From Eledone cirrhosa (Eukaryota), in assembly GCA_964016885.1 (NCBI GenBank), contig OZ024743.1, forward strand, positions 4,278,001 through 4,342,000: a stretch of DNA of 64,000 nucleotides. Direction: 5' to 3'. Of this stretch, positions 3,759 to 26,900 are shown piece by piece. The position numbers and the translations under genes were made by a program. The notes beneath the pieces were generated by a model. That model was not told the origin of the DNA. It did no database searches and was given only the letters and a program-made list of their open reading frames with translations. Each line of letters begins with the position of its first letter. The first letter of the stretch is position 1.

Positions 3759-3802
3759 GGCCTTGATAAGCTTCAACCAAAGCGAAACAAGTCTTGTCGG
3801 CT
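3759..3802 (+). ncRNA. Type I hammerhead ribozyme, family C, U3-A8 core
   Basis: GGCC-TTGATAA-GCTT-CAACCA-AAGC-GAAA-CAA-GTC-TTG-TC-GGCT; predicted cut after 3798. Confidence 0.8.
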
Positions 3803-6800
3803 TATCTCCCCTGTTTGCTGAGATCAAAGTGAGTGAATTTGTCACTACTTTAAAACAATAGCTTACGGTCTTCAAAATGCTTTTAATTAAGCATAAAGTG
3901 TATTGCAAAATACATTATATATACATATATATATATATATGTACATATATATATATATATATATATATATATATATATATATATATATATATATATACAG
4001 AAATACAGATATTTCTGAATCGGACTTTATAGACGGCATTTTGTAATGTACATAAAATCGCAGCAAAGTTAATGTGATGAATATATCTATAATGCAACTC
4101 ATCCTACAGATTGAGAGAGAGCTCTTCCAATCTTATTCACTATGTTTATTCCTATAAACTTATTAGATCTAGTTCACTGTTTCTGGCATATGTAGTTGGT
4201 ACATCAAGCCTTTGTCTGGGCATTTCTTCGTAGATTGTTAAAAATTGTGAAAAAATTGTGAAAAATATAGATCTCGACAAAAATCGAAACTCGATTATTT
4301 TTCTCAATAAACGGAATAATATTCGATAAGCCTTGTTTCTATGTATATATATATATATATATATAAAGGTGTGGTTAAACATTTCATGCAGCTTCGGTTA
4401 AAAAAACTGTCAATGTTTTAACGTTTATCAATGCTAATGGGACGAACGTGTTATCTCTTCTCCCCAACCATTTAGTGTAATGGCTTATACATGTACTTTT
4501 ACCACAATACCTTACTTTCTTGTTCTTGCTTTTTTCTCCTTCCCTTGGGGGAGGGGGAGGCTCATGACTCTCCTGCTATAAGAGGCACCGTAAGACGTCA
4601 CATAAAATTCTATGTGTACTTATTGTAGCTTAATTGCTATAAATTAATGTTTTGTCTCTCGTCTCTTACTCTACTGGACATCGTCAGACATTCTGATATT
4701 GGGCGAACAAGCAATACCGTTGGTAGGGGTCGGAACTGCCAAAGTCCACGTCAACGGCTGATGGCCCTGGAGTTCTGTGTCCTTTGTTTGTATTTTTATT
4801 TTTAGAATAATATTTGTTTGAGGTTTCCCCAAATTGTTTTATGCTCGTTGTCATGTACTCTCTTCGTTAATTTTTTTACGTTTATATATATATATATATA
4901 TATATATACACACACACACACACACACACACACACACATATATATATATATATATATATTTAGAGGAGTAGAGAAAGAGAAAGAGAGGGCACGCAGACCT
5001 AATTTACCCAATCACCTGAAAACGCATGGATCTAGTACACTTAGTATTACTACGTTTACGAATATGTATTTTTATCGCTGCATTGAACCATCTAATGTAA
5101 GTGATGCTAAAGTTGCTTTCTGAATTTTCTGTTGATGTACCTTATACACCTATGATTAGACACTTATTTGAATGTTTTATCTAATCATCTAGGTAGCCAA
5201 TCATTTGTGTATATTCACGAATCTGCGTGGATCTAGCAATTAATAATCAGTATCATATTACATATTATGCTGTTGGGGGGGTATTTGCATTAATCATTAC
5301 GAATCATATTCACTAACTAATCTCAACCACCAGGGCATCTCATTTTCATGAAAAATATGAACAGCCTGATATTTGTCTGTCAGTATATCCGAGATATACG
5401 TTCTTTAGTAAGTCATTCCTTTACTCTCTCTATGTATATACTGAATAAATTCATTATATCACAAGCTTAGTAGTCAAAACCTGGTTTCTGTAGCGCTAGA
5501 AATAATGAAACACTTATTGAATCTATATCAGAGAAGCATTTCCAACAAAACTGGGGTCGATTTAATTGTATGTTTTATGATTGCTTGGTTTCGTGGTTGG
5601 TCTTGTTTTAATCTGGATTTATTTACTTTCAAGTTAAGGCAATTGACGATCTTAGTTTAACTCTAGTTTTTTTATTCATCATCTATCCATATGAGTTGTT
5701 TTTAGCCGAATCTCTACGACTGATAAACGGATCGATATTGTAGTGACGTCCATCGCATCCATAAGAACATTGAGCCAAATATCTGCAAAACGGATGTAAC
5801 GATCGATGACAATAAAAAAAGAACGTTCAAAGTGACATTTTGTCGTGTTAAACTTATTCACTGTTTTAGCAATGAGCGCTCATATTGGTAACTAATCTAG
5901 TAGTCAATAAAATGGCGGATTAACCAAAACTATACATATATTTGCTACTATATCAAGCGTTAAACTAATATATTTCCTCATTGTGCTGTGTTGTTACTTG
6001 TTTTCGTTTACTTTTTCCATATATGATATATAATGTTTAACAATGACAACAAAGGAGAAGACAAATAAGACAAGGTCTTGTGGTTAATTAAGTCATTGTT
6101 TCACGTTAAAATGTTATCAATATGGCGACTATTCGATAGCAGTTATGAAACTACATATGTTTACACTCGACAAAATACGTCCATTCTGTTCATCCTCAGA
6201 AACAATGTATTTTTAACTTTATGAAAAGATATAAAGACTACAGCTTAAAGGGCACCAGAGAAAAACAATGGAAAAGTAAATCAGGAAGAAATATACAGCT
6301 AATATATAAAAGAATAAAACTCCTTACACATACATAGAGACGTGCACACATATATTGATGGTTATAAATCAGATAAAGAGACCAATGGTGGTCAAATTTA
6401 GCTTTGAATAGTTGTTCACTGAGAAATTTCACCAACCCAATAGTGGTGTAGACATATCAAATATCTCCCACTCGTATATTGTATATATCAGATACGTACA
6501 AATGTTTCTTTGGTTGTTTGTTTAGATATATTTTGCAATGGCTGATTGCATTTTTTTTATTTTTTTTTTTTAGTTTTATTCCATTCCGCTGTGATAAAAT
6601 GTATCATGCTTCTCAAATCTTAACTATCAACTAGTGGCAATTTCCATCATATTGTCTTCTTTCTCATGTTTAAATTTGCTATCGTTTTTGTTGATTATCT
6701 CCTCTTTTGGATCATTGTCCAATACCAACCTTCTCCATATTTACTATTATTTCTTTTATTACTCTCAATCTATCTATCCAATTCATAAAAATAAACAATA

Positions 6801-7305
6801 CTTTCCGTATAAGTATGCTCTCCTAAAAGCGTGACACTTCTTCTTTCTCGCAACAAAATAGTATATTCCACTTCCGAGCTGCTCATACACACCATTAATG
6901 CCGCAGCAGTTCATCGCTAGTTTCCTCATACGTTGCAATTTATTTGATGATTTCAGTGAGCATCTATTTATATGAGGATTACGGCTGCATAACATCATAT
7001 TGAATGATTTCCTAACATATATCTCATACATTTATCCGATCTACGAACTTGCGGCAATAAGTTGAACTGTCATTTTCTACGTGCAAGCAGAATATTAACA
7101 GATTCCTCTGCTAATAAAACCTACTAATGCCAGAAACATTAAGAACACATGTTAAGAATTATAAGTAGGAAAGTAATAATAATCAACAGCAATAACACAA
7201 TAATAACAACCGCAACAACAACAACAATAACAACAACAACAACAATAATAATAATAGAAGTATTATTATTATTACAGTTGCAATTATTATTATTATTATT
7301 ATTAT

Positions 7306-24476: not shown

Positions 24477-26699
24477 TATATATATATATATATATATATA
24501 TATATATATATATATATAACGTATCATTTACTAACTGAAGCGGTACGAAGGGTTCAATCAGCGACATATGTCTCAACAGTAGTCGCTGTCAAAACGCCTA
24601 ATAAAATCCTTCTAGTAGTACCGTACCTCCAGCTGAACCTAAATGCACACGGATGCAAACATGTATCTAGTCTCATTTGCCTCAGAATCTCTGAATCCGA
24701 GAGCTACTATATGTTCAACTTATCTCTTACCACATTCTGGAATGGACTTTGAAAAGACTGCCTCGTGGACGAGTTCACCAATTTTTAAAAATATATACTC
24801 CAGGATATGGAAAACCTTTTTATTATTGAACATTTCTTTAATAAGTACTAGAGTTTCGTAAATATTAATACTTTTATTTTTGCAAACTCAACTAAGACGT
24901 ATGCGAATTTCCTATATGACAATAAATAAGTAGTGTGTCTGATGATCATAATATTAATTTATTATAAATTTGTGTTGGTGCTCTGAAATAGTAATGTATA
25001 TACGTACATGTTTATGTTCAGGTTTTAGTTTAAAATATATTGCACCACTAACGGAAAAAAACTCTAGAGCAATCTTGAATTTTGACTAGATTGGGCATGT
25101 GCAGAAAAGCTGGCCCACACCCACATGCATACACTTCTACTTCACACACACACACACACACACACACACACACACACACACACATATATATATATATATA
25201 TATATGAGAGGGAAAGATAGATAGAGAGAGAGAGATTGAAAGAGAGAGCGAGATATGATTCACAAATTGATGCAACGTGTGTTGTTCAAGTATTTATATT
25301 TCATACTTATTTTACGGGAACCTGTCCCCCCTGTAGAAGCTATAGTAACATATTCCTTCCGTAGATTTTGGCTGCTTCCTTATTACAGAACATCATATAT
25401 TCATTCTCCATGCTTTGTATTATTACTGTTATAAAGCTATGTTGGGTATTATACCAAATTAACAAGAAATAAATGAAGAAACAGTTTGGCAAGCAGGGTT
25501 TATGTTTGAATACATGTAAGCTTTTTCTCTTTTTTATTCGTGCTGCGAAAGGAAAGAGATGTAGTTGGAGAAAGAGATACATGCTTATTGAGTGAGAAAG
25601 TATAATAAAAAGAGGGGGAGATTTAAGAATGAACGATAGTAGTAAAATGTAGTGAGTTGCTTTGTACAACATGGGACAATTCTACACGATCGTTTCTGCT
25701 AATTGAAAGATAAGCCAAATATCTCACAAACAACAACATACTATTTAAATCCGCGATATACAATATGATGGGTCGGTGAAAGAACTAATTTATTCATCTC
25801 TTTACTCATTTAAAACTGACTTTGGATTAAACAAAACAGCGACTTGTAGTAAGAGAAAATTAAAGATTTAGTGAAGAAAAATAATCAGAAGACGGCTTTT
25901 AAAATGTTTCTCATTAACTTGGCGGATTATGCCTTTTTCATAAATGCGATTTAACTCTCTAGTGCTTTTACCACTCCTTAGATCGGTGAATATTGATGAA
26001 TTAATGAAAATTAAAATTACTTTCGTGATATTTAGAATCAAATTCTTTCAAATAGAACCTTAAATCTAAAACAATTTGCATACGATCAAGTCAAAAAAAT
26101 AACAAGCAATTATTTTAGAAGGGAGAACCATAATGTTGTCCACCTGTTTATAAGCCCCCTAAAATATGGAATCTTCACTTTTTATGGCGAAACATTCCCT
26201 TATTTGAGTCTGTTCAGGTGTTATAGTTATAAAAGGATGGTTTGTGCATTTTAGTTTATTCTTTTAATTGATATGTATTCTCCATCACTTTCGTAGACAA
26301 TATGATTTTCACTCTGGTGGTATTCTATCCCCTATAATTGAACAACAACCTCTTTGTGTATTTTTCTCTATATTCTGTTTTATGTATGTATATATATATA
26401 TATATATATATATATATATATATATATATATATATATATAGAGAGAGAGAGAGAGATAGAGATAGATAGACTGCATTTTTGTTTTTTAAGAATCCATTCT
26501 GATGATTGAAAACAAATTTTTTGCATTTAAGAAACCACTGGTAAATGGAATAATTTCCTTATGTTGTTTATTACATAACTATATATATATATATATATGT
26601 GTGTGTGTGTGTGTGTGTGTGTGTGTGTGTGTGTGTGTGTGTGTGTGTGTGTGTGTGTGTGTGTGTGTGTGTGTGTGTTCTATAAGAATCCAGCCTCTA

Positions 26700-26900
26700 T
26701 AATTTTCGGCAGAGGCGGGGAGTACGTTGCTCTGAGGATCACCAACAGTGTGAAACAGAATCTGTCAGCTTCTCTCCCTTGCTTTTCCGAAAAAAGAAGT
26801 AAGTGACATAGTCACTACTTTAAAAATGATAGTGCAAGGTCTTCAAAATGTTTTTAGTTAAACATACGGTATATTGCCAAATATACTATACATACATTCA
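26700..26900 (+). mobile_element. Family C diverged copy, followed by (TA)n
   Basis: gtcactacttt..aaggtcttcaaaatg..tattg..atacattca shared with 3841-3925 and 22842-22930. Confidence 0.75.
26729..26769 (+). ncRNA. Hammerhead ribozyme, family C, canonical C3-G8 core
   Basis: GCT-CTGAGGA-TCAC-CAACA-GTGT-GAAA-CAGAATCTG-TC-AGC. Confidence 0.72.

Follow-up and report, generated by a model that had tools for sequence, protein, structure and literature searches.

Three hammerhead ribozyme motifs in a 64-kb stretch of the Eledone cirrhosa genome (GenBank assembly GCA_964016885.1, contig OZ024743.1, positions 4,278,001 to 4,342,000 of the forward strand; hereafter the window, from whose first letter positions are counted) were analyzed together with their relatives throughout the genome. 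Judged from these genomic copies, each of the three sites holds a copy, now in decay, of an abundant and short mobile element with a predicted self-cutting hammerhead, here called family C, and the covariation in its predicted stems is real at the level of subfamilies, where the stems keep pairing while changing letters. The compensatory changes likely record selection on the ribozyme in the successive source elements. A preliminary description of the window had read the paired differences among the three copies as evidence of selection on the fold; such selection is supported far more strongly by the subfamily comparison than three copies alone could show, and it is assigned to the source elements and not to the three loci themselves, because inserted copies decay neutrally and copy 2 has lost G5. 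The three hammerheads sit where that description had placed them; they are listed here with an inverted twin of the first.

3759-3802, plus strand: hammerhead copy 1, type I, U3 (3763)-A8 (3768), core intact, predicted cut after C3798
3471-3428, minus strand: second hammerhead, inverted twin of copy 1
3733-3826, plus strand: copy 1 hammerhead with extended stem I (internal loop, then about 19 distal pairs)
22755-22799, plus strand: hammerhead copy 2, type I, U3-A8, G5 changed to C at 22761, stem III palindromic ACAGAGCTCTGT
26728-26770, plus strand: hammerhead copy 3, type I, C3 (26732)-G8 (26737), predicted cut after C26766

Covariation among subfamilies

For the comparison, 337 distinct copies were clustered into 13 subfamilies, with one cluster (S4, an inversion-junction artefact) and all clusters of fewer than three loci dropped; one subfamily was split in two, and six more were added by targeted searches. 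Among 14 real representative copies, 96.3% of 436 cells were paired and both sides had changed in 15 of 32 pairs, whereas slid-register controls gave 40-51% paired cells and one to three pairs changed on both sides. Stems I and II were recovered unaided by RNAalifold; stem III, which had been gapped by the aligner, was missed.

Because related sequences inflate simple pair counts, events were counted on a tree of 18 subfamily consensuses over 25 pairs, from which the wobble branch (see below) and a four-copy deep group were left out. On this tree 22 same-branch double changes were found, all ending in a Watson-Crick pair, and 443 of 450 tip cells were paired. Re-pairing of the columns in 20,000 shuffles gave a mean of 4.5 and a maximum of 12 double changes. 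At the 13 pairs adjacent to the core, 12 same-branch double changes were counted (2.8 in re-pairing), and a smaller run on 13 subfamilies yielded 14 against 1.7.

History of the 3-8 pair

The tertiary 3-8 Watson-Crick pair invoked in the preliminary description was borne out, since U-A or C-G occupied these positions in 4,912 of the 5,055 genome matches to the family C hammerhead pattern, and the pair underwent two double changes on the tree. The difference between C3-G8 and U3-A8 among the three window copies is likewise real and amounts to a single inherited event, a second appearing only with the older subfamilies. The subfamilies form one ladder, which was also recovered without the hammerhead columns and along which copy divergence falls from 13.5% and 8.8% to 1.5-2.6% (rho -0.81, n = 20 subfamilies). 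The two oldest groups carry U-A (the second-oldest reads TTGATAA in 18 of 20 matches), the next ten C-G, and the last eight U-A, one of these being the wobble branch. A single U-A clade was rejected (approximately unbiased test, p = 1e-6 and 6e-4; 2.4e-4 with a better consensus), and from this rejection together with the ladder order at least two changes are inferred, the pair having likely gone from U-A to C-G and back to U-A. A single C-G to U-A switch had been considered and was abandoned once the older U-A subfamilies were found.

The passage of the pair between these states plausibly went through a U·G wobble. G8 was present in five of the seven loci with the diagnostic upstream sequence of the U3·G8 branch, with unrelated flanks and on four contigs, and one array of this branch contains both G8 and A8 units. 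Going by these loci, the branch shows that the wobble can be copied onward, not that the wobble form cuts. Two further U·G copies (L203 and L309) have different backgrounds and were excluded from the branch; a suspected C3·A8 sub-branch of three look-alikes was attributed to decay, A8 being found in 5 of the first 100 of 133 subfamily matches.

The consensus of the oldest well-sampled subfamily is 75% identical to that of the youngest (151/202), and the copies of these two differ in age by about 5-7 points. The source lineage has thus changed at roughly four to five times the rate of host DNA, an excess for which repeated error-prone copying suffices without RNA replication; RNA-level replication of family C is speculative. 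A wider picture, in which family C would be a dated fossil series with about 25% of its letters changed against about 5-7% for the host, and its 3-8 pair flipped both ways through a working U·G form, all because its circular RNA would itself undergo many rounds of copying from one genomic insertion to the next, much as in a domesticated viroid, is considered unlikely.

Decay of inserted copies and integrity of the window copies

In similarity-sampled copies of two subfamilies, differences from the consensus were seen at 19 of 785 sites in the core and at 214 of 8,902 in the flank, 2.4% in both cases. The 3-8 states of the 5,055 genome matches were U-A in 4,042, C-G in 870, C·A in 43, U·G in 37 and other in 63, the last class being obtained by subtraction; 3-8 mismatch is about 1.4% per site genome-wide, as against loss of G5 in 134 matches (2.6%). 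Because the core decays at the rate of the flank and 3-8 mismatch is no more frequent than G5 loss, the genomic copies, including the three in the window, decay neutrally. On this comparison of copies, pairing is maintained in the source elements that founded the subfamilies, not in the inserted copies. An expectation of 3-8 counts under independence (747 and 741 versus the observed 43 and 37) was discarded as an invalid test, since the copies are related.

The three window copies are homologous across about 200 bp, and parsing of each confirmed the stems quoted earlier: GGCC/TTGATAA/GCTT-CAACCA-AAGC/GAA/ACAA-GTC-TTGT/C/GGCT for copy 1, AGCT/TTCATAA/GTAC-CAAATA-GTAC/GAA/ACAG-AGCT-CTGT/C/AGCT for copy 2, and TGCT/CTGAGGA/TCAC-CAACA-GTGT/GAA/ACAG-AAT-CTGT/C/AGCT for copy 3. 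The core of copy 2 is TTCATAA and not TTGATAA, a break left out of the preliminary description; G is present at this G5 position in 41 of 43 extracted close relatives (a few overlapping loci being counted twice), and with its G5 lost copy 2 is likely dead as a ribozyme. For copy 3 the quoted stem II pairs hold, and a T·T first pair at the stem's base (26739/26751) had been omitted; at this pair its relatives have A-T in 24 of 36 cases and T·T in 12. Stem I extends beyond an internal loop by about 19 further pairs, which had also gone unmentioned.

The type I core (N3-UGA-N-N8-A / GAA-A / U-H, with three stems and stem I open) was found in copies 1 and 3 and in all subfamily consensuses, and copy 2 departs from it at G5. 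Folding z-scores of the three regions were -8.1, -6.4 and -2.5. A loose hammerhead descriptor gave 6 matches in the real window, copies 2 and 3 not being among them, and 0-3 in each of 20 shuffled windows; the motif alone is weak evidence, because shuffled windows also match. No Rfam match reached the gathering threshold in the 64-kb window, and copy 1 gave a sub-threshold match to Hammerhead_HH9 (E 5e-4, 24.6 bits, compared with a gathering score of 52).

The family C element

Each family C unit is about 316 bp long, non-coding, and carries one type I hammerhead. In the host genome (3.0 Gb, rich in (TA)n), the units are laid out in head-to-tail tandems and head-to-head inversions beside (TA)n, with arms of up to seven units that adjoin one another or (TA)n directly. 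No open frame of 120 codons runs across the family C copies in the window, and the units have no reverse transcriptase/GIY-YIG frame of their own, unlike an autonomous Penelope-like element. The 5,055 exact genome matches to the hammerhead pattern compare with none in a reversed control; a pattern for other stem I types added 741 (46 in the control; some come from a different family), and the 29-letter 3' motif of family C gave 7,130. The insertions in the window are listed below.

3579..3938, plus strand: insertion 1, sense arm, of the youngest subfamily (S7); monomer positions 247-316 followed by 1-290, inner fixed 3' end, (TA)n
3266..3581, minus strand: insertion 1, inverted arm, full 316-bp monomer, outer fixed 3' end (with tail), (TA)n
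22714..22939, plus strand: insertion 2, sense arm (subfamily S33), monomer positions 71-290
22584..22708, minus strand: insertion 2, inverted arm, monomer positions 192-316, without hammerhead
26678..26909, plus strand: insertion 3, of subfamily S54; one arm only, 5'-truncated and flanked by (TG)n and (TA)n

By its size, its tandem form and the absence of a frame, family C fits the retrozymes without long terminal repeats (non-LTR retrozymes), which are short non-coding tandem units with a hammerhead in each, and it is likely such a retrozyme copied by the enzymes of a Penelope-like element. One local array (G000:C3:114925776-114955592) contains at least 17 family C units with a changed G5 and is a DNA-level expansion of a copy that was likely dead.

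Insertion ends

Ends were analyzed for 537 arms in 238 merged loci, which were mostly picked for containing a hammerhead, with short 3' fragments under-sampled. The 3' ends gather in two places some 25-35 nt apart, at about positions 287-296 and 313-316 of the unit, and a TA/TG run follows 381 of the 446 arms that end there. Among 165 head-to-head inversions, 103 have one end of each kind, 2 and 6 have the same end twice, and 54 involve another end; where both arms stop at a fixed end, one of each is used in 103 of 111. Family C thus shows the 5' truncation, the tandem and inverted arms, and the tail at one end only of a Penelope-like derivative. Truncation, inversion and a 30-40 bp tail at one end are described for Penelope-like elements in the relevant part of PMC8557442, and the tail is explained by two internal reverse transcription start sites in that of PMC11167929. 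An apparent 5'-end peak at the cut site proved to be an alignment artefact and disappeared with subfamily-matched templates.

Two hairpins just upstream of the fixed 3' ends (window 3876-3915, present in all subfamilies) also covary, one from T-A through T·G to C-G and the other from A-T to G-C. These hairpins likely belong to a protein-binding region.

Family B and other Penelope-like sequences

A second element in the window, family B, carries a hammerhead in each of its inverted arms, with the core TTGAGAA and a long stem II.

10077-13367, minus strand: family B, 5'-truncated, presumed Penelope-like element with a frame at 12506-11466, 887-bp inverted arms and a U3-A8 hammerhead in each

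Elsewhere in the same genome (L474) family B has an intact frame of 784 aa in 3,531-bp tandems, with many near-identical copies, and it ends in (TA)n and has a U3-A8 hammerhead. We take it to be Penelope-like from its motifs (YRDDG, a GIY-YIG-like motif and a Cys/His pattern) and from its layout; Pfam and PDB sequence searches returned nothing for the 784-aa frame. Penelope-like families other than B were met only as fragments.

Short family B pieces at 2938-3075, 22391-22561 and 26950-27083 of the window adjoin family C in the same (TA)n tracts, and family B pieces stand beside family C at 52 of the 238 family C loci. The 3' ends of these pieces are likewise fixed at two sites, separated by about 78 nt, and many start about 30-40 nt upstream of the predicted cut of family B. 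At three loci (L038 near 1897, L190 near 1917 and L002 near 2430) a family C arm lies head-to-head with a truncated Penelope-like frame on the opposite strand, (TA)n being absent between them at two of the three junctions; these junctions could be two-template or nested insertions.

Proposed mechanism and alternatives

The observations as a whole are, with good confidence, best explained by a non-LTR retrozyme with Penelope-like copying and selection on the ribozyme in its source elements. A source array of family C would be transcribed, and the multimer would be cut by the hammerhead after position 17, probably with two units folded together through their palindromic stem III, after which monomers may circularise. 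A borrowed reverse transcriptase/GIY-YIG protein would nick TA-rich DNA and start copying at two internal sites, one per strand; copying would read through the hammerhead on an uncut or circular template, and only sources keeping the fold would found the next subfamily. In 8 of 15 subfamilies stem III is perfectly palindromic, and its duplex form is much more stable than the hairpin; dimer cleavage is described for Penelope hammerheads in passages of PMC4209133 and PMC6765202. The 316-bp monomer folded as a circle gave a z-score of about -5.5 against 60 shuffles, and private variants are common to all units in some arrays and to only some units in others.

Several points weigh against this explanation. 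Five of the 18 subfamilies tolerate T·T or A·A as the first pair of stem II; most of the search patterns fixed the core letters, which makes core invariance among subfamilies partly a product of construction (stem II, stem III.4 and the distal stem were left free, and G5 was examined separately); and the tree was built from about 200 columns, with template switching between subfamilies outside the model. No autonomous partner was found: families B and C share no detectable sequence, and of the 18 loci among 238 that had Penelope-like protein matches, the eight inspected gave no clear junction of repeat and frame. The 5' ends are spread and do not peak where the cut is predicted (the two bins there hold 6 and 11 arms, those next to them 8-22), and, according to the pertinent passages of PMC11167929, hammerhead mutants of the tested Penelope system still inserted normally in vitro.

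The last two points also favor the view that selection kept the RNA fold because it binds the borrowed protein or lends stability, with cleavage incidental or lost, as do the covariation of hairpins outside the ribozyme and the spread of the U3·G8 branch to five loci. This view is judged rather improbable, given that positions 3 and 8 form a tertiary contact within the catalytic core whose pairing both switches re-established, and that the first 100 of the 134 matches with a changed G5 held no dispersed subfamily, only scattered copies and one 17-unit local array. A DNA-level satellite or miniature inverted-repeat element, whose paired changes arose by repair or conversion between inverted arms, would account for the long hairpins, the inverted arms and the one satellite-like array, and one stem arm can be copied onto the other by conversion; however, variable 5' ends with fixed 3' ends are a signature of retrotransposition, and positions 3 and 8, four bases apart and unable to pair as a DNA hairpin, changed jointly twice, so this origin is very unlikely. 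Least credible is the literal first reading that the three genomic copies are functional and selected in place. The core is kept in copies 1 and 3, which fold better than shuffles, but G5 is lost in copy 2, core and flank decay equally in inserted copies, and the paired differences are subfamily characters common to tens to thousands of copies.

Other repeats

A further hammerhead repeat family (L343, L348, L349, L352, L355, L376, L403 and others) has U3-A8, mostly with the core TTGACAA, together with a long stem I and the loop CAATAA, and was not matched by the family C profile; its related copies L375 and L391 have C3-G8, and to judge from these this family may hold another independent 3-8 switch. 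Several more C3-G8 hammerhead types with palindromic stem III were met among the loci extracted. In the window, a canonical CTGATGA hammerhead with a 10-bp stem II lies at 61146-61247 in another inverted repeat family, and 33029-44864 and 45211-50159 hold several clustered frames of truncated non-LTR retrotransposons, with (AAT)n runs between them, and a longer minus-strand element with reverse transcriptase similarity.

Comparison with known systems

Sequence alone confirms that in a mobilising retrozyme lineage the fold of the hammerhead, its tertiary 3-8 pair included, is under selection, even though insertion in vitro could proceed without a functional Penelope hammerhead. Elements of this class and the U3-A8 variant have been published before, so that only the double flip and the wobble branch are new; what is added is a well-resolved case and no new principle. 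The ladder provides ordered natural variants (U-A, C-G and U·G; palindromic and non-palindromic stem III) with which the role of cleavage in Penelope-type mobilisation can be asked. Neither a natural U3·G8 form nor a subfamily-level history was found in the literature searched, which lacked most subscription papers.

Metazoan non-LTR retrozymes (Cervera and de la Peña 2020, PMC7229834; Li, Clavereau and Pollet 2026, bioRxiv 10.64898/2026.07.22.740005) are likewise described, in the parts of these papers drawn on here, as tandem units that are non-coding, measure about 300 bp, hold a single type I hammerhead and run to thousands of copies, and the axolotl forms share with family C a U·U at the base of helix II and a palindromic loop 3. 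Expression and circles have been demonstrated for metazoan retrozymes, whereas family C is known here from genomic sequence. The passages of the retrozyme literature searched mention no dated ladder of subfamilies, no pair of fixed 3' ends and no targeting of (TA)n. The hammerheads of Penelope-like pseudo-LTRs, as presented in excerpts of Cervera and de la Peña (2014, PMC4209133), include a U3-A8 variant in Schistosoma Cercyon and are mostly minimal motifs beside a protein frame; family C differs in that it lacks a frame, its stem I is long, its stem III has 3-4 bp, and a single lineage shows both 3-8 states.

Anolis Poseidon (Frangieh et al. 2024, PMC11167929, in the sections concerned) resembles family C in its two internal reverse transcription start sites, 30-40 bp tail and AT-rich targets, and differs in being autonomous, with a frame that begins inside the hammerhead. 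In the Poseidon hammerhead C3G or G8C kills cleavage and the double mutant partly restores it, a swap from C-G to G-C and not to U-A or U·G. Natural covariation of C3/G8 to U3/A8 was reported in several examples by Perreault et al. (2011, PMC3088659), activity in vitro having already been demonstrated for such ribozymes; these cases are scattered and come without an order of events in the passages searched.

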